Below, in pieces: positions 1-10,586 of a stretch of 10,586 nt of DNA. Positions within the stretch are counted from its first letter, which is position 1; each line of letters starts with the position of its first letter. The notes beneath the pieces were generated by a model. That model was not told the origin of the DNA, made no database searches, and saw nothing but the letters and a program-made list of their open reading frames with translations. Origin of the DNA: a virus (Duplodnaviria > Heunggongvirae > Uroviricota > Caudoviricetes). The stretch is taken from IMG/VR virus record IMGVR_UViG_2693429700_000023. One strand, written 5' to 3'. Made by a program: the position numbers and the translations under genes.

Positions 1-87
1 CTGTGAGTCATATTCATCCTGACTTTCCAGAACCATACGAATCGCCCGCTGACGGACTTCGGGGGAAAAACGAGTATTTTTAGTCAT
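1..87 (-). CDS. IS3-family transposase OrfA (HTH subunit), N-terminal 29 codons, partial at window edge
   Basis: Reverse-complement translation from 87 gives MTKNTRFSPEVRQRAIRMVLESQDEYDSQ, which I recognise as the N-terminus of IS3-family OrfA proteins. Too short to appear in the ORF track. Confidence 0.6.
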   Translation of the reverse strand, partial: MTKNTRFSPEVRQRAIRMVLESQDEYDSQ

Positions 88-141
88 CCTGTTTACCTCT
101 TTCTCAGGGAGTTTAGTCTCCAGGATTTCCGGGGCGGTTCA
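1..141 (-). mobile_element. IS3-family insertion sequence, one end only (element continues beyond window start)
   Basis: Read on the minus strand from 141, the sequence begins 5'-TGAACCGCCCCGG, a TG-initiated terminal inverted repeat typical of IS3-family elements. It is followed by an SD (AAAGAGG) and an ATG at 87..85 opening a transposase OrfA-like ORF. The exact IS name cannot be assigned without ISfinder. Confidence 0.6.
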
Positions 142-887
142 TTCTGCATTGCTGCTGTTGGTGCATATGCTGACGTTAACGCATTTGCTCGGCTAATATC
201 CTGCCCTCTCGCCTGAAGTGCTTCGCCAGCCTGATTGCTGCGGATTGTCTCTGCCAACTCGCCGCGCTCAATATCCCGACCTTCCATTTGATCTTTGATA
301 TCGAAATACTTCTCATGACCGAGAGAAAACAGCGCCAGATTACCTGCGAAATGCTGGAAGCCCTGCGGGTCATTAACCTGCATTTCAGCAATAGTTTCTG
401 GAGGGATACCTAAACGACGCATCTCCTGCTCATTATCCATCATGAACCTGCCAAATGCGCCCGGACCAAGCGATGAGGCTACCTGTGCTTTGAGCGCCAG
501 ATTGCCATAATCATCCCTTTGAGCATCATCGACATAACTCATCCCTTTACGGACTTCCTCAAACTCTTCTGGGAATGCTGTAATAAGATTACGCATCTGC
601 TCCCTGTCGCCGGACGCATAAGCATCTGCATAACCTTTCTGGAATGCCGCTTTACGCTCCTGCTGTTGCTGCTGCTTATAAATATCAGCAACTCCAGCCA
701 GACCACGTAACGCGGTCAGACCAACGTTATTTGCACCTGAGCGAGCCAGTTCATTGTTTTCGCGGATCAGACCAAGCGTTGCGTTAATGTCGCTTGCCTT
801 TGGCGCATTCTCATTTTGCGTACCGATGCCAGCCAGAAAACCACCAGAATTAATACCCTGTTGCCACGTAGCCATTGATTTACCCAC
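93..887 (-). CDS. Hypothetical protein (~260 aa), 3' end disrupted by the IS insertion
   Basis: Long minus-strand ORF from the track. The track start at 887 is a GTG; the first ATG is at 875 (MATWQQGINSGG...). The last 16 codons (EPPRKSWRLNSLRKR) are encoded by the IS terminal repeat (93..141), so the native C-terminus is lost or replaced. Contains a QQQQQ run from a CTG/CAG tract near 661..676. No family recognised. Confidence 0.5.
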   Translation of the reverse strand: MGKSMATWQQGINSGGFLAGIGTQNENAPKASDINATLGLIRENNELARSGANNVGLTALRGLAGVADIYKQQQQQERKAAFQKGYADAYASGDREQMRNLITAFPEEFEEVRKGMSYVDDAQRDDYGNLALKAQVASSLGPGAFGRFMMDNEQEMRRLGIPPETIAEMQVNDPQGFQHFAGNLALFSLGHEKYFDIKDQMEGRDIERGELAETIRSNQAGEALQARGQDISRANALTSAYAPTAAMQNEPPRKSWRLNSLRKR

Positions 888-1053
888 GTCCAGTTAAAGT
901 GTAAGCCAGCGCCTTATCCATTAATCCCCGAGCAATTTCGTGGATCGTTGGCGCAACTCCTACCTCTGATTTTTTACGCTGCTCCTCCTGAATTTTCTTT
1001 ATCGCTTCCATTTGCTTCTCACTTATCAATACTGGCTTTACTGAAATAGCCAT
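880..1053 (-). CDS. Small hypothetical protein (57 aa), possibly a ribbon-helix-helix-type DNA-binding protein
   Basis: Found by hand translation (below the track length cutoff): MAISVKPVLISEKQMEAIKKIQEEQRKKSEVGVAPTIHEIARGLMDKALAYTLTGRG. ATG at 1053..1051 is preceded by SD AAGGGGG (1064..1058). The stop TAA (882..880) lies 4 nt before the ATG at 875 of the next gene. The strand-then-two-helices pattern suggests RHH, but this is inference. Confidence 0.45.
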   Translation of the reverse strand: MAISVKPVLISEKQMEAIKKIQEEQRKKSEVGVAPTIHEIARGLMDKALAYTLTGRG

Positions 1054-1066
1054 AACGCCCCCTTAG

Positions 1067-1092
1067 AACTGTATAAAACAACAGTTATTATA
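1067..1092 (-). promoter_or_regulatory. Candidate promoter -10 plus operator-like inverted repeat upstream of the 57-aa gene
   Basis: A perfect TATAAT on the minus strand (plus 1087..1092) sits about 35 nt upstream of the ATG at 1053. Immediately downstream is the inverted repeat AACTGT-N8-ACAGTT (1067..1086), between the -10 and the SD. No convincing -35 was found. Confidence 0.3.
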
Positions 1093-1145
1093 GTTTCACA
1101 AATCGCAATATTCATCATCGTAATTGCAAAATATGAAACAAATAG

Positions 1146-1181
1146 CACAAAAAAATGCCACCGCTCAGTAGCTGGTGGCAT
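1146..1181 (-). terminator. Intrinsic (rho-independent) terminator, minus strand
   Basis: The minus strand reads ATGCCACC-AGCTACTGAGC-GGTGGCAT followed by TTTTTTTGTG: an 8-bp GC-rich stem, 11-nt loop and 7-T tract. It lies downstream of the primase/ori region and upstream of the 57-aa gene promoter. Confidence 0.5.
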
Positions 1182-1375
1182 CGTTCTGTATGTCAGGTTT
1201 TGACAGGTTTTTTATGGACTCTAAAAACTATATTTATGGTGTCGCATTACTCTTCACGGCAGGCGCTTTCCAGTTCTGCCCTTGCTTCTGGCTCCATTGG
1301 TAATTTGATTCGCGATCAGCTATGCGGATGGTTTGCTGAACAGGCATAACAACTTCTCAAAGGCTGTTTTTTGAA

Positions 1376-1451
1376 CTACGAAAATTTCGTAGTGCTCACT
1401 TTCAAAAACGTCACGCCCTTGTACACAGGATTTTACGAAAGTCTCGTAAAA
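1376..1451. repeat. Two short perfect palindromes sharing a TACGA/TCGTA core
   Basis: CTACGAAA-A-TTTCGTAG at 1376..1392 and TTTTACGA-AAGTC-TCGTAAAA at 1431..1451. Both are just upstream of the iteron array; possible protein-binding sites. Confidence 0.5.
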
Positions 1452-1500
1452 CACTCTCTGATGCCAGCCAGGTGTTGTGCGCATCAATTCAGTCACATTG

Positions 1501-1613
1501 TGTTGGTTCAAAATACCGTGTTGTTGGTTCAGTGTTGGTTCAATAAAAAGAATAAAATCCTTATAAAACAATACTCTTTACAAATTGAACCAACTGAACC
1601 AACTGAACCAACA
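1501..1613. repeat. Iteron array (candidate origin of replication): 3 direct and 3 inverted copies of TGTTGGTTCA flanking an AT-rich spacer
   Basis: TGTTGGTTCA occurs at 1501..1510, 1522..1531 and 1533..1542. A ~43-bp AT-rich stretch follows (1543..1585), then three tandem TGAACCAAC units (the reverse complement) at 1586..1612. The array lies immediately downstream of the primase-helicase stop (1638). Confidence 0.6.
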
Positions 1614-1637
1614 CCTTTTCTACGCACATGAAGAAGC

Positions 1638-4394
1638 TCATTCTTCAGATGAGTTGTAATCTCCTGGCTGGTAATTGAGTACATAAACGTTTATTTGTCG
1701 TCCCTGAATACGTGGTGATTTTCTTTGGTATCCACGACCGCTGTTTGGTGGGGTTAGCATCCCGGCTTTTTTCAACACTTCAGCAAACTGTTTTGCGTTG
1801 AAACCACATGCGATCTCCTTTTCAAATGTGGCCGGGAATGTGTAGAAAATCATTGGGCTTTCGTCATGTTCTCCACGCTGACGGTATCCGGCTAAATCTT
1901 TGATTGGCAAATCTGCCGGGCTGTATGGAAATGGTGCAAAACGGCTAAGCCCATAGGCATTAAGAAATGCCTCCGTTTGTTCAATAATCTGCTGATGTTC
2001 TTTGTTACCTGTGCCGAACTCGCGCAACCATGCGTTATAGCTGTGCTGTATCGCATCACGGCATGTCTGAGCATCCCAGCCTGTTACAACCTCGCCTAAC
2101 AGCAATGCGGCCTCCAGAATGGCAAATCGCGCGGCTACACGGTGAACCTGCTCACCATAATCGGATGGAATCAGGCTTCTCCATCTGCTTTCGCAGTCAC
2201 GAACAGTTTTAATAGCCTGTTGCTGGTGGTCTGCCAGCCATTTAATCCACTCACGCCCGGCTGCGCCGTGGTGATGCTGGTAAGCGTCTTTCAGTGCGTC
2301 TGCGTGCTGTTTTCCGTTCTGGTAATCGTGAAAGCGTACTGCTTTACTCAACGGAATATTCAGCAGTCGCACCAGTTGCCCGGCTTTGGTTTTTCGCCCG
2401 GAAGTAGCGATAAATGTTTCTAAATCCATTTCTCCAGTGCTGATTGCCACTGTACGCCAGCGTTTTAGATCCCGGTTTCCACCATCTTTAGCGCCTTGCA
2501 GTTTCCCTACACCGTTAAATAACGCATAGGCAGACTGTGAAACACTGACAGGATCAGCGCCCTGACCAACTTCATCAAGCGGCATTAGTCCGTCATTGTG
2601 GGCGGCGGCTTCATTTGCCAGCCCCAGCGCGGTTCCGTACCACGTCAGCCGCAGTAAATCAGGGTTGCCGTATAAGCTGCTCGCCACGTTTGCCGTGGTG
2701 GTCTTACCTGCGCTCGACTGCTCATAGAAATGAATGCCGAACCCGTCAGCGCCCACCAGCCCAATCAATGGCGCTGCCAGTGCTGCGCCGATCCCGATCA
2801 TCATTGAATAGTTACCAAAGGCCAGACGCGCCACGTTATCACGCCAGCTTTTCGCGCTCCCTGAGACGGTATATCCGGCTGCGGCTGAGCTTCTCCCGCT
2901 GAACAGCACAGGATTTTCAGGTGTTCCGATGATTTCCCCATCAGGCATGATGTACGCTCCGCATTGCCAGCCAGTGGCATGAGCAACACGCCACAATTCA
3001 CGAGAGCCACTGCGTTGTAGCCAGTCTGCCAGTATTGCTCTGAGGCTGCTTTTGGTCGTGACATTTACCCCACCAGCTTTAAGTGTGCGCCATCCTTCAC
3101 GTTCACCAATATCAGCCAGTGGAATGGCAGCGGTTGTCGGCGTTTCAGAACCAAACGACAGCCAGCGAAGAATGAGATACTGGTCTTTATCGTCTCTGCC
3201 AGTACCGATAACGCTTAACGGAGAACATAACCAGCTTTCGTTATTGATGATTTCTCCACTCTGGCTGTCAGCTCTCGGAGATACCCAATAAATACCATCC
3301 TCGCGGCTTTCTATTCTTGGTTTCAGTGGGTCGGTATCCATAACCTTAAAATCGCTTCCCTCAATGGTCTGTGGCTGCTGTTTCACGCCATTACCCTGTG
3401 GTTGGTACATTGACTTATTGAACGCTTCTGTGGCGCATTTAATGCCGTGTTTTTGGTGGTAATCATTCCAGTCTGCTTTGTGATCTGTCGGGGGTAATGC
3501 CACCCATCCAGAAACAGATAAAGCTGCTTTTTCTGCTGCTATTCTCCCCGTGTTTTGTCTTCCTTCGCTGTGGTCGTTATCCGCAGCAATGATGATTTGT
3601 GCTGAAGGAAATTTATCCCGCAGTACCTGGGCGACATATAACAGGTTCCCGGCATCAATCGCCGCCACTGTCAGCGATTCTGGACGAATTAAATGGGCAG
3701 ATAATGCCGTTGCCAGCCCTTCTGCGATTAAGATGCTCTGTGTTGTTTCTGGTGCGTTTATGGCGTGATATGCCCCTCGCTTTGCTGAACCTGTCAGGAG
3801 TCTTTTTTCACCATGTGAGGTAATAGTCTGTGCTGCTGTGACTGCGCCGGATTTATCCACCAGCGCCAGCAACAGAGATCCATCGGGCAACACTGGGAAT
3901 GTAAAATCACCTACCCCTTTCGCAACCAGATAATCAGATTTGCCGTTTACAGCCTTTCTGCGCATGTCATCAAACTGACGGGAAAACGTATCCCGTCTTT
4001 GTTGTTCGTCCTTCTCTGCCCTTTTCAGGCGCTCCTGTTCGCGTCGCTGGCGCTCGGTTTCCAGTTGTTCCCGTTTCTGGCTGGTGGCTTCTGGTGTTTC
4101 CGTTGTCCGGTAATCAATACCCAGAACATCAGCGGCAAGAAGCGCCGCCTCTGTTGTGTCGCAGTTATTTACGCGTTTAATTAAATCCAGCCCATCACCA
4201 GCGCCGCACTGATTACAGATGAAGCTACCGCGCCCGTTGTCGTCGAACCGGAATCGATCTTTGCCCCCACATGCAGGGCAGGGAGCATGACGGCGAGGAG
4301 AGTCAGGGACATTTATGTTCAGACAGCCCAGCACATGAGGCCAGTTGTTTTCAGACGCACTGATAACCTGACGGATAAGATCAATGTTTCGCAT
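1638..4394 (-). CDS. Primase-helicase-like replication protein (N-terminal Zn-ribbon, TOPRIM, C-terminal P-loop/DUF927-like domain), 918 aa
   Basis: The N-terminus has CPACGG...CNQCG (CxxC-N17-CxxC zinc ribbon), then a charged ER-rich linker. The TOPRIM signatures are present: a conserved Glu (IAEGLATA) and DxD (IIIAADNDHSEGR). Further on is a deviant P-loop (SSAGKTT). SD GGGGG lies 5 nt upstream of the ATG at 4394. The family call is from motif recognition, not a search. Confidence 0.88.
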   Translation of the reverse strand: MRNIDLIRQVISASENNWPHVLGCLNINVPDSPRRHAPCPACGGKDRFRFDDNGRGSFICNQCGAGDGLDLIKRVNNCDTTEAALLAADVLGIDYRTTETPEATSQKREQLETERQRREQERLKRAEKDEQQRRDTFSRQFDDMRRKAVNGKSDYLVAKGVGDFTFPVLPDGSLLLALVDKSGAVTAAQTITSHGEKRLLTGSAKRGAYHAINAPETTQSILIAEGLATALSAHLIRPESLTVAAIDAGNLLYVAQVLRDKFPSAQIIIAADNDHSEGRQNTGRIAAEKAALSVSGWVALPPTDHKADWNDYHQKHGIKCATEAFNKSMYQPQGNGVKQQPQTIEGSDFKVMDTDPLKPRIESREDGIYWVSPRADSQSGEIINNESWLCSPLSVIGTGRDDKDQYLILRWLSFGSETPTTAAIPLADIGEREGWRTLKAGGVNVTTKSSLRAILADWLQRSGSRELWRVAHATGWQCGAYIMPDGEIIGTPENPVLFSGRSSAAAGYTVSGSAKSWRDNVARLAFGNYSMMIGIGAALAAPLIGLVGADGFGIHFYEQSSAGKTTTANVASSLYGNPDLLRLTWYGTALGLANEAAAHNDGLMPLDEVGQGADPVSVSQSAYALFNGVGKLQGAKDGGNRDLKRWRTVAISTGEMDLETFIATSGRKTKAGQLVRLLNIPLSKAVRFHDYQNGKQHADALKDAYQHHHGAAGREWIKWLADHQQQAIKTVRDCESRWRSLIPSDYGEQVHRVAARFAILEAALLLGEVVTGWDAQTCRDAIQHSYNAWLREFGTGNKEHQQIIEQTEAFLNAYGLSRFAPFPYSPADLPIKDLAGYRQRGEHDESPMIFYTFPATFEKEIACGFNAKQFAEVLKKAGMLTPPNSGRGYQRKSPRIQGRQINVYVLNYQPGDYNSSEE

Positions 4395-4406
4395 TCTGGC
4401 CCCCGT

Positions 4407-5009
4407 TTAGTGCGTCACTGGTGCTTCTGGGATGCCGTTTTCGTTTAGTTCGGCAATAAAGCTGTTGTGAAGATCGGCAAGCACTTCTCGCCCAAACGAA
4501 GTGAGTGTTCCCTGTTCGACATCGAACATGTTGCTGTAAAAAATGATGGCATTCTTTGTTCCGACATCAACACCATATTTCTCGATCATTGCGCCCTCAA
4601 TGTTGTTTGCCATAGCGAGGCGCTCTGCTACTGGATACAGCGGCATGGCGACGATGCCATTGGAATAAACAGAAACCACGGAATGATTGCCACTGTCATC
4701 AATAATGCTGACGGTGCCGTTTTCCTTTCTCATTTCATTGATGAATGCTGTTGCTATCAGCCAGCGCCACATAATCACGTGATGCTGTGATGTGTAATCG
4801 AAATATCCCTGGTTGCCGCCACTGGCAATAGCGAGATGTATAAACATGCCTTCATCTGGTTTATCGTCATAATCCCCGGCATCCAGACGATTTACGGCAT
4901 CAATATATGAGACGGTCTCAACGCGTTCTGTCATGCCATCGTTGCTGCGGTGCATGATGTTTACGCCGTCAGGCGTTGCTTCTGCATGGAAGGTTAAGAA
5001 ATTATTCAT
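4407..5009 (-). CDS. Hypothetical acidic protein (200 aa)
   Basis: The track ORF is 4407..5114, but I prefer the internal ATG at 5009 (MNNFLTFHAE...). It has SD GAGG 6 nt upstream and makes an ATGAATAA overlap with the stop of the upstream gene, whereas the longer N-terminal extension is Cys/Trp-rich and overlaps the neighbour. About 29 D/E versus 11 K/R. No family recognised. Confidence 0.6.
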   Translation of the reverse strand: MNNFLTFHAEATPDGVNIMHRSNDGMTERVETVSYIDAVNRLDAGDYDDKPDEGMFIHLAIASGGNQGYFDYTSQHHVIMWRWLIATAFINEMRKENGTVSIIDDSGNHSVVSVYSNGIVAMPLYPVAERLAMANNIEGAMIEKYGVDVGTKNAIIFYSNMFDVEQGTLTSFGREVLADLHNSFIAELNENGIPEAPVTH

Positions 5010-5223
5010 GTTTCGCCTCGCCTGAATGATTCTGTAACTCATATTTGCCCAACAATTCGTCCGCTTCCTGAATAGCTTCTGGTACGCCATTGAGCAGTGA
5101 CATAACCGCGCCAATCATTAACTTGTCTCTGTTGCTGGGGCTGGCCCCTTCAAGCCAGAACCCTAAAACAGTCTGAACCTGTTCGATGCGACATTGCGCT
5201 TCAATGAGCTGGATGTTGGTCAT
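5002..5223 (-). CDS. Hypothetical small protein (73 aa)
   Basis: Track ORF with SD GGAGAG 7 nt upstream of the ATG at 5223. Its start overlaps the upstream stop (ATGA) and its stop overlaps the downstream start (ATGAATAA). Net acidic. Confidence 0.5.
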   Translation of the reverse strand: MTNIQLIEAQCRIEQVQTVLGFWLEGASPSNRDKLMIGAVMSLLNGVPEAIQEADELLGKYELQNHSGEAKHE

Positions 5224-5483
5224 TTCGCACTCTCCACATCGATTAAACCGATATCTATCAGGGAGGTAACTTTTTGTAGCCAGCTATTGATTACTGTCGC
5301 CTGTTCCCCTCCCACCGAGGGAACAATCTCATTCATCACATGAACCAGACCTGTGCGCGCTCTGGTAAGCCGTTCAGTCGCGCAATCTGCGGGAGTGAAT
5401 GTGTCTGGATATGGCTCTTCACGCCCCAGCAATGATTCAATTTCCAGCTCACACGGATGACGATAAATTAAGTTGATATTCAT
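5220..5483 (-). CDS. Hypothetical small protein (87 aa)
   Basis: Track ORF with SD GGGGGTG upstream of the ATG at 5483 and ATGA overlaps at both ends. Net acidic. Confidence 0.5.
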   Translation of the reverse strand: MNINLIYRHPCELEIESLLGREEPYPDTFTPADCATERLTRARTGLVHVMNEIVPSVGGEQATVINSWLQKVTSLIDIGLIDVESAK

Positions 5484-5674
5484 TTTTCACCCCCAAGAAT
5501 TACCAGCTCGGCACGGGCATCGTTAACCAAAGATGAGCACGCTTTAATCGCATCCACGACATCAGCAGCGTCCATTTCTTCAGCCGAAAGACTGACAGCA
5601 ACCAGGACAGCCGCTGCTTGCTCGATTAATTGAAGTGCGGACGTAAGGCGAGGGGTATTAATTGAGTTATTCAT
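5480..5674 (-). CDS. Hypothetical small protein (64 aa)
   Basis: The track ORF is 5480..5731; I prefer the internal ATG at 5674 ([10 protein letters not shown]...), which has SD GGGGG upstream and overlaps the upstream stop as ATGAATAA. Predicted helical and acidic. Confidence 0.45.
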   Translation of the reverse strand: MNNSINTPRLTSALQLIEQAAAVLVAVSLSAEEMDAADVVDAIKACSSLVNDARAELVILGGEK

Positions 5675-5885
5675 TGGTTGCCCCCGTTTTTCCTGGCATT
5701 TCGCCACCTTCCAGCAGGAAATGAACGTCACGAACGGCGAGATCCAATATCGCGAGTAACGCCTTCAGCCTTTCGTCTCGTGAGGGAGAGTTGCTCACCA
5801 GAATGTCGTTAATCACTTCTGTCAGTGTGATGATCTGGCTTGTGCGTTCGAGGGGATCCATATGCACATCGTAGGTTTTAATCAT
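5667..5885 (-). CDS. Hypothetical small protein (72 aa), modelled as a separate gene in the 3' part of the 355-codon ORF
   Basis: The internal ATG at 5885..5883 ([15 protein letters not shown]...) is preceded by a strong SD GGAGGTGG and overlaps the stop of the frame-B gene as ATGATTAA. Codon usage from here to the stop at 5667 looks coding. This is an alternative model to the full 355-aa ORF. Confidence 0.45.
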   Translation of the reverse strand: MIKTYDVHMDPLERTSQIITLTEVINDILVSNSPSRDERLKALLAILDLAVRDVHFLLEGGEMPGKTGATNE

Positions 5886-6734
5886 GTGCCACCTCCATGC
5901 GGATACGACCAGCAAAAAAGCAGACGTGATCGCGCACCAGAGAACGGCGAGCATCGCGTTCAGACTCGGCAGCAATATGATGAATTTTGGCGGTAATTGT
6001 CGGGCAATCGCGGCGAACTGCGGCGATAATCCAGATAAATTGCGGTTTTTGGGTAGGGGTAGTAGCCAGCATGTGGCAGCCTCCATTCGATAGCATGTAA
6101 CGCTACCACCGGAAACGCCAATTTCGCTGGTGGTAGCCCAGACAGGGTTGGCGTAACCGGCTCGAATGGATACCGGCGCTTCCGAAGAAGCCCCTGCCTG
6201 AGCCACCATTGATTGACAAAGGCGCTGGATTATACACCAACGCCCAAAAAATGGGTGAGTCAGACCTACGACATAAAAAAAGACGCTCGGCGCGTCATAT
6301 GTCGCCATTCGATTTACCAGGACGCCAATCCCGGCACCCGTTTTATGAGGTGCCTTATAACCATAAACCGTGTTGCCGCATAACGGCAAGCTCTTTTTTA
6401 TGGACTCCGAAAACTCGCTATTGGAAGCACCAGATGCACAGTACATCGCGCTCATTTCGTTAACGTCACGCGCGTGGACGAATGTTTTTGTGGAGTCACT
6501 ACACGAGCGGAAGACATCATCTACGACCAGAAATTTTCTGGCGCAGCCGCTGACCTTCTCAATGCTAATATCATCGCCCGAGATTTCTGATATGGTTAAG
6601 GCATCCGTTCCGACCACCAGCAAATGATAAACTTTGCTTGTATCTGCTGTATTAATGCCTGACTTTGCCGTCATATTGCTGGATTTTGGCGACATACCAG
6701 CCAGTGAAAATGTCTTCTTCTGGACGGTTAGCAT
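5667..6734 (-). CDS. Uninterrupted 355-codon ORF; the N-terminal ~220 codons look like a real unknown gene, 3' boundary unresolved
   Basis: ATG at 6734 has SD GGAGG 7 nt upstream and overlaps the upstream stop (ATGCTAA). The N-terminal region is protein-like and contains KFLVVDDVF (6510..6536). The frame stays open to 5667, but between about 6072 and 5886 the coding signal moves to another frame. The true product is therefore either a 355-aa fusion or a shorter protein with an unseen end. Confidence 0.45.
5878..6072 (-). CDS. Hypothetical small protein (64 aa) in a different frame from the 355-codon ORF
   Basis: Track ORF 5878..6096; I prefer the second ATG at 6072 ([16 protein letters not shown]...), which has SD GGAGG 7 nt upstream. 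This frame uses common codons with G-rich first positions, whereas the overlapping frame of the 355-codon ORF is Leu/Pro/Ser-rich with rare codons (CTA, TTA, CCC, CGA, ATA, AGG). Confidence 0.5.
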   Translation of the reverse strand: MLATTPTQKPQFIWIIAAVRRDCPTITAKIHHIAAESERDARRSLVRDHVCFFAGRIRMEVAHD

Positions 6735-6910
6735 TTGTTAACCTCCGCGAACTCCTTCATGAAACGCGCCAGCGGTTGTACGCATGGCGATTGATACCCG
6801 TCGCGATAAAACGTCACTCGGTTGTGAGACACGCTTTCGACAGTAACGAGTGCTCCGTGGGCATCTTTGTAGCGTTTTTGTGGTTGTGGTGTTCCTGTTG
6901 GCTTAGACAT
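6728..6910 (-). CDS. Hypothetical small protein (60 aa)
   Basis: The track ORF is 6728..6997; I prefer the internal ATG at 6910 (MSKPTGTPQPQKRYK...), which has SD GGAGGTGG upstream and overlaps the antirepressor stop as ATGTCTAA. Its own stop overlaps the next start. Confidence 0.45.
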   Translation of the reverse strand: MSKPTGTPQPQKRYKDAHGALVTVESVSHNRVTFYRDGYQSPCVQPLARFMKEFAEVNKC

Positions 6911-7736
6911 TGACCACCTCCAGACGCTTGGCGAGCCAGCGTTGCGACAGGCGGGTGAGTTCTCCTTTGCGCTGCTCATATTCCATGCCCATATCAATTA
7001 ACGTGATATTGGTGCTTTCGAGATATGAGAGGTGCTCAAGCTGTTCTGCGTTCATATGGTCGCGAGGTTCGCCAGAATAGCCATTTATCCGCGCCCACTG
7101 CTTAGCAGTTAGCCCACCAAGAACGATACGAGAAATCATATTGCTCTCGTTTGTGTAGTGGTGTTGCTGCGTCGTTTTACCCATCTCGGCACGGGCCATA
7201 TTCAGCGCATCGCACATTGGCTTAAAGTTGTTTGCGGCACTGATACGGGCTTTTAGCTGGCGACGATAGCGGGCGGCGATTTCAGGCACGCTACGCTGTA
7301 ATTCTTCCTCGCACTGGATGAAATAACGGCGGATAGCGCGACCCTGATCATTGCGTTCGATCATTGCCAGTTCTTTCGCCATTCCGACACTTAACAGATA
7401 GTCTTTGCCGGGTCTGCCAGACTGCTTAATCTTGCTGTAAGCCGCGCCATTCGGGCTTTTCCCCAAATTTGGGGAAATTGTTTTATGGACTGAGTAATCG
7501 TGCCCAATGGTGAAGTCATATTCAGAGATGCGATCAGTGATCCATGTAGAGAAGTCTTTTCCCACGCCCAACGCTTTGTGTAACGCTTTTGCGCTAACAA
7601 TATTGGTTTCACGCCCACCGATATGACCAGGAATAACCGGGACAATTGCGGCAAATTCATTACCGTTAATTGTGCCCAGAGAGGCGTTCAGATGAGGGGC
7701 GGCCTCAGAAATTAATCTGCTTTTTTCGATGTTCAT
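6903..7736 (-). CDS. Phage antirepressor-like protein with an AntA-type N-terminal domain (277 aa)
   Basis: The N-terminal half matches the AntA/AntB antirepressor pattern as I recall it: SAKALHKALGVGKDFSTWITDRISEYDFTIGHDY ... DYLLSVGMAKELAMIERNDQGRAIRRYFIQCEE. SD GGAGA lies 7 nt upstream of the ATG at 7736. The C-terminal half is unassigned. Confidence 0.7.
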   Translation of the reverse strand: MNIEKSRLISEAAPHLNASLGTINGNEFAAIVPVIPGHIGGRETNIVSAKALHKALGVGKDFSTWITDRISEYDFTIGHDYSVHKTISPNLGKSPNGAAYSKIKQSGRPGKDYLLSVGMAKELAMIERNDQGRAIRRYFIQCEEELQRSVPEIAARYRRQLKARISAANNFKPMCDALNMARAEMGKTTQQHHYTNESNMISRIVLGGLTAKQWARINGYSGEPRDHMNAEQLEHLSYLESTNITLIDMGMEYEQRKGELTRLSQRWLAKRLEVVNV

Positions 7737-7748
7737 TTTCAGTCTCCG

Positions 7749-8180
7749 TTAGGCGGCGTTAAACGCGTCCGGGTAGAGTTTCAGAATGTCGGCAATTTCC
7801 TGCTGAGAAAGTCCGTTGTGATCATTTATGCTCGCAAGATGGTTAACATGAGTGATCACTTTCAGAACATCACCACGGCAGGAGAAACGGTAGCGAAGGT
7901 GTGTTCCGATACCATCAGGATTCTTTTCGTCGATACGCTCCAGAGTGATTCCAAGCTGGCGTTCTAACTCTGTTGCATAGTTACGACCAGAAGACAGACG
8001 GCAGTAGCGAAGAATGTCATTTTCTGTCCATCCCTCTATACCAGTACGCAGCATATAGACTCTGGCACGATGCTTTTTCGGTGTGCGCTTTGGTGCTTGA
8101 AGGGATTTTGTCAGGGGCGTAACATCAGATACGCGAATATCTGAATTAGCCGCCTGTAATGGGCGGTTTTTCTTTTCCAT
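7749..8180 (-). CDS. Hypothetical protein (143 aa)
   Basis: Track ORF. Its ATG at 8180 shares one base with the alpA stop (TGATG) and is preceded by GAGGTGG encoded in the alpA C-terminus. Basic N-terminus; no family recognised. Confidence 0.55.
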   Translation of the reverse strand: MEKKNRPLQAANSDIRVSDVTPLTKSLQAPKRTPKKHRARVYMLRTGIEGWTENDILRYCRLSSGRNYATELERQLGITLERIDEKNPDGIGTHLRYRFSCRGDVLKVITHVNHLASINDHNGLSQQEIADILKLYPDAFNAA

Positions 8181-8383
8181 CAGGCCACCTCGTCTCTAGA
8201 TTCTAATATACACTTCTCAATCCATTCATCTATTTCAGACTCAACAAAAGCAATTGCCCGACTTCCAATTTTTACCTGTTTAGGGAACCTCCCCTGACTA
8301 ATAAGACGATAAATCCATGCTTTGCTATAACCAGTTCGCCTTTGAACTTCAGAGAGACGAATTAATGAATTGTAATTAGCCAT
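8180..8383 (-). CDS. alpA: AlpA-family (prophage regulatory / excisionase-like HTH) transcriptional regulator, 67 aa
   Basis: A small protein with an HTH-like core (IRLSEVQRRTGYSKAWIYRLISQGRFPKQVKIGSRAIAFVESEIDEW) resembling AlpA-type regulators, placed directly downstream of an integrase remnant as in P4-like and PICI-like elements. Confidence 0.75.
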   Translation of the reverse strand: MANYNSLIRLSEVQRRTGYSKAWIYRLISQGRFPKQVKIGSRAIAFVESEIDEWIEKCILESRDEVA

Positions 8384-8470
8384 TTATTAATATCCTGTAC
8401 TAATGACGCAATAACTCCCTCCTGCAACGAATGGCGAGAGTTTTATTTGCATCAAATGTCGAATACGCCA

Positions 8471-8503
8471 AAGACCACAATATGAAAAACATATTGCGGT
8501 CTT
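8471..8503. promoter_or_regulatory. 33-bp near-perfect palindrome (operator-like) in the int-alpA intergenic region
   Basis: AAGACCACAATATG-AAAAA-CATATTGCGGTCTT: 14-bp arms with one mismatch, about 90-120 bp upstream of the alpA start. A palindromic TTTATAAA abuts it (8503..8510). Confidence 0.4.
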
Positions 8504-8662
8504 TTATAAAAGATAGTCAGATTGTTTTGGTTTGTTTGCTCCACAAGGGTAGAGCTACCCTGCATTTCGGCAGGATCACGCTATTAGGCGTGACATCCAG
8601 TAGTTTTAAAGAACGCCCTTTTTCAGGGCATGGTGGGCAGGCAAGAGAGCAATTGCGCTTTG

Positions 8663-8977
8663 TCAGCGCCGTAGATTCATATTTGAATCATTGTATGTTT
8701 CCCGGGCAATCTTTTCCTCTCGTTTCGCTTCCATCGGATCGATACCACCAGCGATACCTCTTTTCGCATCTTCACGTTTTGCCCGAGCATCGGCTAGAGT
8801 AACCTCAGGATACACACCTAGTGCCAATAGCTTCTCTTTACCAGCTACACGATATTTAAGTCGCCAGTATTTACCTCCATTAGGTTTTACCAAGAGATAC
8901 AAACCGCCACCATCGGCCAGCTTGTAAGCCTTCTCTTTTGGCTTGGCTGTGTCTATTTGACGGGCATTGAGTTTCAC
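8663..8977 (-). pseudogene. Tyrosine integrase (P4-family) remnant: N-terminal arm-binding region only, 104 codons
   Basis: The ORF (GTG start at 8977, SD GGAGGT upstream) encodes KLNARQIDTAKPKEKAYKLADGGGLYLLVKPNGGKYWRLKYR..., which resembles the N-terminal arm-type DNA-binding domain of tRNA-associated integrases. Full-length enzymes are about 400 aa, and only 279 bp remain before alpA, so the catalytic domain is absent. Confidence 0.7.
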
Positions 8978-9042
8978 TTGGGGGTACCTCCACTAAACCG
9001 AACAGCAAATACCCCCATAAGTACCCCCATCTGACCGTAGAT

Positions 9043-9125
9043 TTTGAGGGACTTTAGTAGACGTCAAAAGACGAACGGGGCTTTAATACGCGGATTATAA
9101 GGGGTTTTGAAAGACTTTAGTAGAC
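9043..9125. repeat. Direct repeats in the attL-proximal arm (candidate arm-type integrase or accessory-protein binding sites)
   Basis: TTTGAGGGACTTTAGTAGAC (9043..9062) and TTTGAAAGACTTTAGTAGAC (9106..9125) match at 18 of 20 positions. Nearby, TACCCCCAT occurs twice (9010..9018 and 9022..9030), with an inverted copy (GGGGGTA) at 8980..8986 next to the int start. Confidence 0.4.
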
Positions 9126-9142
9126 TTGGGGAGATGTTTGAA

Positions 9143-9218
9143 TGGTGCCGATAATAGGAGTCGAACCTACGACCTTCGCATTACGAATGCGCTGCTCTAC
9201 CAACTGAGCTATATCGGC
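9143..9218 (-). tRNA. thrW: tRNA-Thr (anticodon CGU)
   Basis: The reverse complement is a 76-nt tRNA with a 7-bp acceptor stem (GCCGATA/TATCGGC), a D-arm GCTCAGTTGGTAGAGC, anticodon loop TTCGTAA (anticodon CGT), T-arm GGTTCGACTCC and a 3' CCA. The CCA end (9143..9145) faces the mobile-element side. Confidence 0.95.
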
Positions 9219-9332
9219 CCTGAAAGGACATGTTCACGAACGTGAATCACGGTGGACAAGGTTAAAACTAACCGGGCGATGCGTCAATGGCCTTGTGAAT
9301 CAAATGGCTACTTTTGCATCACCCGGTTTTAT

Positions 9333-10586
9333 TTACGCACGAATGGTGTAATCACCAATGCCGATCCACTTGTAAGTGGTCAGTGCTTCCAGCCCCATTG
9401 GGCCACGCGCGTGGAGTTTTTGTGTGCTTACCGCCACTTCCGCACCCAGACCAAACTGGCCGCCGTCGGTAAAACGCGTAGAGGCGTTAACGTAAACAGC
9501 GGACGAATCCACTTCGTTAACAAAACGCTGGGCGTTGCGCATATCGCGGGTCAGGATCGCATCGGAGTGTTGTGTGCCGTGTTCACGAATATGGGCGATG
9601 GCATCGTCAAGATCGCTGACGATTTTGACGTTCAAATCTAATGACAGAAACTCATCGTCATACTCTTCGGCTTTAACAGCAACCACCTTCGCAGGGCCTG
9701 CCTGCAACTGCGCCAGTGCAGCTGCATCTGCGTGTAATGTCACGCCGCTTTCCGCCATTTGTTTGCTTAATGCGGGCAGGAAGCTATCGGCGATGTTTTT
9801 ATTCACCAGCAACGTTTCAACCGTATTACATGTGCTCGGACGCTGAGTTTTCGCGTTGACGATCACTTTTAATGCTTCAGCGATCTCTACACTTTCATCA
9901 ACGTAAATATGGCATACGCCTATACCACCTGTGATCACCGGGATTGTCGACTGTTCACGGCACAGTTTATGCAAACCAGCGCCACCACGCGGGATCAGCA
10001 TGTCGATGTATTTATCCATACGCAGCATTTCACTGACCAGCGCACGGTCAGGATTATCAATCGCCTGCACGGCACCCGCCGGTAAGCCGCAGGATTTCAG
10101 GGCGTCCTGAATCACCGCCACCGTTGCAGCGTTAGTGCGACACGTTTCTTTGCCACCGCGCAGGATCACCGCATTACCGGTTTTCAGGCACAGCGAAGCG
10201 ACATCAACCGTCACGTTCGGGCGCGCTTCATAAATCACGCCAATAACCCCCAGCGGTACGCGACGACGCTCAAGACGCAGGCCGCTGTCCAGTACGCTGC
10301 CATCGATTACCTGCCCCACCGGATCGGCGAGGTTACACACCTGGCGCACATCATCGGCAATGCCTTTCAGCCGTGCGGGCGTCAGTGCCAGACGGTCAAG
10401 CATCGCTTCGCCAAGGCCATTGGCACGCGCGTCAGCAACATCCTGGGCGTTAGCGTTGAGGATGATTTCGCTTTGTGCTTCCAGTTCATCGGCGATTTTT
10501 TCCAGCACGCGATTTTTTTCGCGGCTGGAGAGTTGCGCTAATTTATACGAGGCTTGCTTCGCGGCAATGCCCATTTGTTCCAGCAT
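9333..10586 (-). CDS. proA: Gamma-glutamyl phosphate reductase (glutamate-5-semialdehyde dehydrogenase), 417 aa
   Basis: The translation ([38 protein letters not shown] ... [14 protein letters not shown]) matches enterobacterial ProA as I recall it, at the correct 417-aa length. The ATG is the last three bases of the window. Confidence 0.95.

Follow-up and report, generated by a model that had tools for sequence, protein, structure and literature searches.

What has become of a mobile element whose tyrosine integrase gene is reduced to its arm-binding end and whose other genes still look open: is it a locked island that the host keeps for some function, or an element that has only just been broken? 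This question is raised by a locus at the tRNA gene thrW in a 10,586-bp stretch of E. coli DNA (hereafter the window), which matches the final 10,586 bp of contig CYAS01000054.1 (GCA_001283645.1) at 100% identity. An earlier interpretation of these letters (hereafter the sequence-only reading) had recognized a 104-codon arm-binding remnant of a tyrosine integrase beside thrW and favored the first of these answers.

The minus strand of the window carries proA (9333-10586), thrW (tRNA-Thr(CGU), 9143-9218, recovered by both ARAGORN and the Rfam tRNA model), the truncated integrase gene int', alpA, a 143-aa ORF, an AntA-family gene, a DUF4222 gene and an Ash-family ORF, followed by a block of small ORFs, a 918-aa primase and a homologue of the P22 Inj_translocase protein. 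The alpA gene (8180-8383, minus strand) encodes a 67-aa AlpA-family regulator (Pfam Phage_AlpA, E = 7e-20), which is co-oriented with int and lies downstream of it, as in Gram-negative phage-inducible chromosomal islands (PICIs). It shows neither synonymous nor nonsynonymous differences from its counterpart in ETEC H10407 and a single synonymous and no nonsynonymous difference from that of strain MP1, and the accession WP_000035054.1 is common to A29, H10407 and MP1 in RefSeq. The primase/replication protein (1638-4394, minus strand) is intact, combines a zinc ribbon, a TOPRIM and a DUF927 domain in Pfam searches, differs from the A29 protein by one nonsynonymous change (I533T) and has 98.4% DNA identity to the corresponding gene of EcCIMP1. 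The window thus holds the arrangement typical of Gram-negative PICIs, namely an integrase gene, here truncated, followed by a co-oriented alpA, together with a primase module of its own.

EcCIMP1, the PICI of E. coli MP1, is a 19,963-bp element (GenBank OR778291 / CP139039; the MP1 locus is referred to below as L006) inserted at a tRNA-Thr gene between proA and yagU with the att core TCCTATTATC; Kapi1, a P22-like phage, acts as its helper and brings about its induction, excision and transduction (ISME J 2025, PMC11773190). The gene order, the insertion site and the sequence of the island in the window together assign it to the EcCIMP1-like PICIs at thrW. Of the genes that mark P4-like satellites, sid, delta and psu gave no Pfam match in ten window ORFs and four A29 proteins, and no such gene names occur in the RefSeq annotation of the full A29 and MP1 elements; the traits that the window does share with these satellites are confined to the Ash-family ORF and a C4-type RNA.

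The latter was recovered by Rfam as a C4 antisense RNA (79.5 bits; 6126-6213, minus strand) accompanied by isrK (67.1 bits; 6276-6353, minus strand). Both sit inside the 355-aa Ash-family ORF, between the antA/DUF4222 genes and the small-gene/primase block, and the same pair is found in EcCIMP1 (L006 24600-24687 and 24750-24827) and in the element of A29 (locus L005, 14986-15073 and 15136-15213). Their position suggests an RNA immunity switch of the P1/P4 type upstream of the replication genes in EcCIMP1-like PICIs; the paper on EcCIMP1 mentions neither isrK nor an antisense RNA (PMC11773190). Just downstream of the primase lie two sets of tandem repeats in mutually opposite orientation, TGTTGGTTCAG (1.9 copies, 1522-1542) and TGAACCAAC (3 copies, 1586-1612), which are probably what the sequence-only reading had called an iteron origin. 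The stretch 1533-1619 recurs, inverted and with ~87% identity, at L005 2881-2967, in the far part of the element in A29.

The gene int' (8663-8977, minus strand) has a GTG start preceded by a GGAGG about 9 nt upstream, and encodes 104 aa, of which the first 94 are those of a P4-type tyrosine integrase of 404 aa and the last 10 are unrelated. This tail, YNDSNMNLRR, is read out of context from the int-alpA spacer and is followed by a stop codon. Pfam searches recovered an Arm-DNA-bind_3 domain (PF13356) at residues 3-88, covering positions 1-83 of the 83-position profile (E = 9e-30), so that the arm-type DNA-binding domain of a P4-type integrase is present over its full profile. All 94 integrase residues are identical both to the intact integrase of A29 and to IntS_1 of EcCIMP1, the first mismatch against A29 being residue 95. 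In the intact A29 protein Arm-DNA-bind_3 (residues 3-88) is followed by Phage_int_M (PF22022, 100-194) and Phage_integrase (PF00589, 206-371), and as the break at residue 94 comes after the end of the arm domain at 88 and before the start of the next domain at 100, it falls in the linker.

A tblastn search of the window with the intact 404-aa A29 integrase returned, at E <= 10, a sole match to residues 1-94 (100% identity, 8977-8696), and the full-length integrase that would have overturned the sequence-only reading was thus looked for and only this segment of it found. The core-binding domain (PF22022) is absent from the 104-aa product and, by tblastn, from the whole window, and the catalytic domain (PF00589) with its conserved Arg and His residues and tyrosine nucleophile likewise gave no tblastn match in the window at E <= 10. 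The product of int' is therefore a fragment of a member of the integrase family rather than a functional member. The earlier claim that the space up to alpA is too small for a catalytic domain is borne out by the measured gap of 279 bp (alpA starts at 8383), which is too short to hold the ~310 missing codons; the identification of the remnant itself agrees with both the Pfam match and the ORF.

Comparison with an intact element at thrW, which had been proposed as a means of locating the deletion junction, placed it at 8697-8704 with both A29 and H10407. In blastn against A29, window positions 141-8704 correspond to L005 9001-17564 and positions 8697-10586 to L005 18829-20718. Exactly 8 bases, GTTTCCCG, belong to both segments, and H10407 gives the same result. 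The intact element has two copies of GTTTCCCG 1,272 bp apart, and the window has a single remaining copy of this direct repeat, which on the coding strand reads CGGGAAAC and spans codons R92-E93-T94. The 1,272-bp deletion removes int codons 95-404, from the last base of codon 94 and including the stop, along with 330 bp at the int-proximal end of the int-alpA spacer, which is 651 bp long in the intact element. A single event of illegitimate recombination or replication slippage between the two 8-bp copies of GTTTCCCG accounts for the loss, and translation of int now enters the spacer for 10 codons and then stops.

As the source is a short-read draft contig with an insertion sequence at its end, a collapsed repeat or a frameshift in the assembly or annotation could in principle have shortened the ORF of an integrase that is really intact. 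The chance of this is negligible: an independent Logan assembly of run ERR134522 has an identical int' junction and IS boundary, the identical int' protein has been deposited under three NCBI accessions, a repeat of 8 bp cannot collapse a short-read assembly, and 1,264 bp rather than one base are gone. The recurrence of the junction in the independent assembly and under three accessions rules the artefact out. We hold with high confidence that int' is the integrase pseudogene stump of an EcCIMP1-like PICI at thrW, produced by one recent 1,272-bp deletion, and no observation speaks against the deletion itself.

The same deletion also affected the region in front of alpA. The residual spacer (8384-8696, minus strand) is 313 bp long (321 bp if the junction repeat is counted), where the intact element has 651 bp. 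When the spacer of the window was aligned with those of A29, MP1 (EcCIMP1) and CFSAN061761, the alpA-proximal ~232 bp proved nearly invariant among these relatives and are still present in the window. A block of ~140-180 bp just past the int stop codon, conserved in all three intact elements aligned, is lost from it, and this block falls inside the -449..+50 fragment that was shown by Pick et al. to be helper-inducible (PMC11773190). A consensus scan found no sigma-70-like sites in window positions 8100-9300, including the residual spacer; the minus strand of the A29 spacer has three such sites, all in the deleted part, and loss of a promoter was considered on this ground, although their frequency is that expected by chance and they are suggestive only. 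At the gathering thresholds of Rfam no structured RNA was detected between 8384 and 9142. A plus-strand ORF in the spacer (8431-8802, 123 aa), which the deletion joins to antisense int sequence and which has an annotated 129-aa counterpart in A29 and H10407, belongs to no Pfam family and was treated as spurious.

The spacer (L005 17244-17894 in A29) additionally contains a box, GCGCTGACAAAGCGCAATTGCTC (window 8646-8672), with an internal 5-bp inverted repeat. Two copies of this box are present in spacers of the A29/H10407 type and one each in MP1 and CFSAN061761, and one is left in the window, where the new stop codon of int' sits within it. The invariant alpA-proximal part holds a 15-bp inverted repeat (8470-8504) and the palindrome GGGTAGAGCTACCC.

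On the other side of int', thrW is one of the classic hot spots for integration (PMC7545054), and the att core GATAATAGGA lies in the 3' part of the gene at 9150-9159, reading TCCTATTATC on the tRNA strand and matching the core published for EcCIMP1 (PMC11773190). The far-side core is present in A29 at L005 ~855-873; that of the island in the window (attR, core AATGGTGCGATAATAGGA) lies beyond the contig end. The repeats that the sequence-only reading had placed at 9043-9125 do exist, as two plus-strand direct repeats of 21 bp, TTTTGARRGACTTTAGTAGAC, recovered by a repeat search in the int-proximal arm at 9042-9062 and 9105-9125, 63 bp apart. Their core ACTTNANTAGAC has 2 matches against 0.01 expected by chance, and they occupy corresponding positions in EcCIMP1, in a relative of 90% identity and at the vat-island stump described below; they may be regarded as candidate protein-binding sites. 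An alternative candidate for the arm-type site is the motif RTACCCCCA, with three matches against 0.10 expected (8979-8987, minus strand; 9009-9017 and 9021-9029, plus strand) and two more in the arm at the other end of the intact A29 element (L005 934-954). Such a layout of two and three copies recalls the arm-type sites of lambda P and P'. The copy at 8979-8987 overlaps the ribosome-binding site and GTG start of int, and the arrangement hints at autoregulation by the integrase. Conservation did not discriminate between the two candidates, since both ACTTNANTAGAC and RTACCCCCA are conserved in the 90%-identical intact relative. In lambda Int the isolated N-terminal domain binds arm-type sites. 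Given that int' retains a complete arm domain and the sequence upstream of it, binding of the fragment to DNA is plausible.

Evidence on the age of the deletion comes from the near identity of the island to intact copies. Over 8,564 bp, the island part of the window has 3 substitutions relative to A29, with none in 8697-9325. Two of them alter proteins (A104V in the homologue of the ejection protein, I533T in the primase) and the third is synonymous, all being of uncertain polarity. In the adjacent proA region (9326-10586) 29 of ~1,260 sites differ from A29 and only 7 from CFSAN061761. Nearly identical islands beside diverged proA genes point to different chromosomal backgrounds, which indicates that the intact form of the island moved horizontally very recently. 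On this comparison the deletion is younger than the common ancestor of the window and A29 islands, and it would be recent and effectively neutral or slightly harmful to the element. Its rarity was assessed in 5,426 complete E. coli genomes, none of which had a place covering at least 80% of 8560-8760, and in a large assembly index, where the exact int' protein occurs on only six contigs from a few isolates, among them the carriers of CTT50015.1, CTZ31636.1 and CTZ38872.1.

The deletion is not the only damage. The first 140 bp of the window, which are also the contig end, match annotated copies of IS1203/IS629 (IS3 family) at 100% and represent its terminal part. Homology to A29 starts at position 141, placing the insertion point at 140/141 in the gene for the P22 injectosome/ejection-protein homologue (141-887 in ORF 93-887, minus strand; Pfam Inj_translocase, E = 1e-85), of which ~249 of 488 codons remain; the A29 protein has the full 488 aa. 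The Logan contig of ERR134522 crosses the same junction and stops after 27 bp of IS sequence. IS1203 is thus a second lesion in the island, and with the contig ending inside it, it may be either a simple insertion or the mark of a larger loss. At the corresponding position MP1 and CFSAN061761 carry another set of genes (DUF2824, a hypothetical protein, an ejection protein and a lytic transglycosylase), and EcCIMP1-like PICIs thus carry swappable P22-type ejection-protein modules.

These observations bear directly on the proposal that the host retains the island because its regulatory, cargo and replication genes are useful, for instance in immunity to helper phages, with the integrase fragment still acting on the arm repeats. 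There is material that accords with it: no ORF within 905-8614 is interrupted, and all are virtually the same as in intact elements; int' has a full Arm-DNA-bind_3 domain, preceded by a promoter-side sequence and ribosome-binding site that are unchanged. EcCIMP1 makes its host immune to superinfection by the helper and codes for a repressor of the LEE virulence genes (PMC11773190). Moreover, a non-excising island at the same locus, the vat island, is itself headed by an arm-only stump of a class found in ~9% of complete genomes. However, with at most three substitutions since the common ancestor, the expected number of ORF-disrupting changes would be well below one even without selection, and the intact ORFs of an island three substitutions from an intact copy are thus expected in any case. 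Furthermore, IS1203 disrupts another island gene, conserved spacer upstream of alpA has also been deleted, and the allele is found in none of the 5,426 complete genomes. The dN/dS ratios of the family are equally silent on the branch following the deletion. Against MP1, H10407 or CFSAN061761 they are 0.11 for the primase, 0.25-0.27 for orf200 and 0.28-0.37 for antA, the genes with enough differences (0.1-0.4 in round terms), and reach up to 0.9 in comparisons with few differences; such values reflect selection on the mobile family, mainly in lineages with intact integrases. When the dN/dS comparison that had been suggested for the retained genes was carried out, the relevant branch yielded 2 nonsynonymous changes and 1 synonymous change of uncertain polarity, and the comparison accordingly has no power.

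The deletion is therefore too recent for the intact neighboring ORFs to carry any information on retention by the host, and the claim of such retention is not supported, since an island only three substitutions away from the intact A29 element has had no time for decay. The accompanying description of an element with its mobility lost and the rest intact survives in part: the alpA and primase ORFs are indeed intact and the ORFs in 905-8614 open, but the ejection gene is cut by IS1203 and half of the int-alpA spacer is lost, including a conserved block. We judge domestication of the island to be improbable. Its recency shows no evidence for selection rather than evidence against it, and a benefit to the host is possible; the state of the island is nevertheless that of ordinary early decay of a mobile element and not evidence of host retention.

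A separate matter is whether the truncation immobilizes the island. Both alpA and intS_1 of EcCIMP1 are needed for excision and transfer, and its delta-intS_1 derivative shows no excision, no circularisation and no transduction; with Kapi1, excision, replication and packaging are all helper-dependent (PMC11773190). The missing catalytic domain and this deletion phenotype together imply that the island should not excise alone. The sequence-only reading had said as much, and it gains from the fact that the integrase whose loss abolishes excision in EcCIMP1 is identical to int' over the first 94 residues. It is well supported by this analysis that the island would lack excision, circularisation and transduction of its own unless an integrase of the same specificity were supplied in trans, and its helper-dependent mobilization is expected to fail at the excision step. 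The proviso leads to an alternative in which the truncation is no real lock, a related integrase from a co-resident or incoming EcCIMP1-like PICI or from a tandem thrW island making the island mobilizable. The attL arm differs from that of the functional EcCIMP1 at 1 of ~209 positions, so that an integrase of the EcCIMP1 type would meet normal substrates; tandem arrays at thrW have been seen in MP1 and inferred in H10407, and the family is widespread (350 of 5,426 genomes). On the other hand, a second integrase was not found within the 10.6-kb window, none of the other integrases tested in trans in MP1 had an effect on Kapi1 replication, with or without Kapi1's own integrase, which bears on the point only indirectly, and the IS insertion and lost spacer may impair induction or packaging whatever the supply of integrase. 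Rescue in trans appears unlikely on this evidence, if somewhat less so than domestication.

Arm-only integrase stumps at thrW are common. The vat island of MP1 is headed by a different one (L006 8213-8548, 112 codons, an open reading frame), which comes from the same integrase family, has 85% DNA identity and is cut at ~residue 111 as against 94 in the window, that is within 17 codons of the break in int'. This island adjoins EcCIMP1 in MP1 and gave no excision or circularisation product in any tested condition (PMC11773190). Its stump occurs in many B2 / ExPEC genomes. The identity class of this stump, the 80-90% band, is represented in 496 of 5,426 complete genomes (~9%), and all 20 of the full-length rows sampled from this band are annotated as 'Arm DNA-binding domain-containing protein'. 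The 90% protein cluster of the int' product comprises 540 proteins; among 40 of them read, the 14 others listed range from 75 to 270 aa, and many carry a 'partial' flag from their sources. Since int begins directly beside attL and the tRNA, any internal deletion that spares the tRNA would leave an N-terminal stump. The vat stump differs from int' in being an independent truncation with another junction, and in that its class is widespread whereas the int' allele is confined to few isolates.

It is conceivable, though highly improbable, that the 94-residue arm domain of int', if still expressed from the unchanged int promoter and ribosome-binding site, sits on the arm sites of thrW and hinders related PICIs in a dominant-negative or architectural manner, while the immobilized island keeps its helper immunity. 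In that event int' would block tandem integration or excision by related PICIs, the island with its intact alpA, C4/isrK RNAs and primase would go on giving immunity to P22-like helpers, and the widespread vat-island stump would be a second example of an active arm-only stump. Setting this aside, the loss of the integrase by a recent deletion is nothing new in kind, and both the element family and the hot spot are familiar. The value of the locus is mainly one of annotation: it marks one small E. coli clone with a freshly disabled satellite of the EcCIMP1 type and an exact junction. Its lesson is that a dead integrase with intact neighbors is not readable as domestication when a near-identical intact copy exists. 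The strain could moreover serve as a natural int-null control for PICI induction, in-situ replication and trans-complementation at thrW.

The architecture of int' can be compared with that of lambda Int, which likewise has an autonomous arm-binding domain and a linker followed by the core-binding and catalytic domains; int' ends in this linker. The arm domain of lambda Int belongs to a different Pfam family from the Arm-DNA-bind_3 / DUF4102 domain of int', and int' arose by an accidental deletion that gave it a random tail of 10 aa. Among PICIs, EcCIMP1 shares with the window the insertion site, the att core and the order int-alpA-antA-DUF4222-ash/C4-isrK-small genes-TOPRIM/DUF927 primase. Its DNA is 94.2% identical over 4409-8626 and 98.4% over 905-4394, and its attL arm is all but the same. 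EcCIMP1 has both int codons 95-404 and the downstream spacer, of which the window has lost 330 bp; the window spacer belongs with the longer ones of A29 and H10407 (651 bp when intact), whereas that of EcCIMP1 in MP1 is 427 bp. After the primase the window type has a single 488-aa ejection-protein homologue in place of the DUF2824, hypothetical and ejection proteins of EcCIMP1. Elements covering at least 80% of window positions 1-8614 are found in the 350 of 5,426 complete E. coli genomes noted above. The element of A29 (NZ_CP028746.1, 3,652,4xx-3,670,8xx), of which near-identical copies are also present in TOK-001, 21EVA and BKQ37E, is effectively the parental sequence of the island. Unlike the window, it encodes the integrase in all its 404 aa (WP_000772644.1), keeps the 651 bp of spacer and has a 488-aa ejection gene without interruption.
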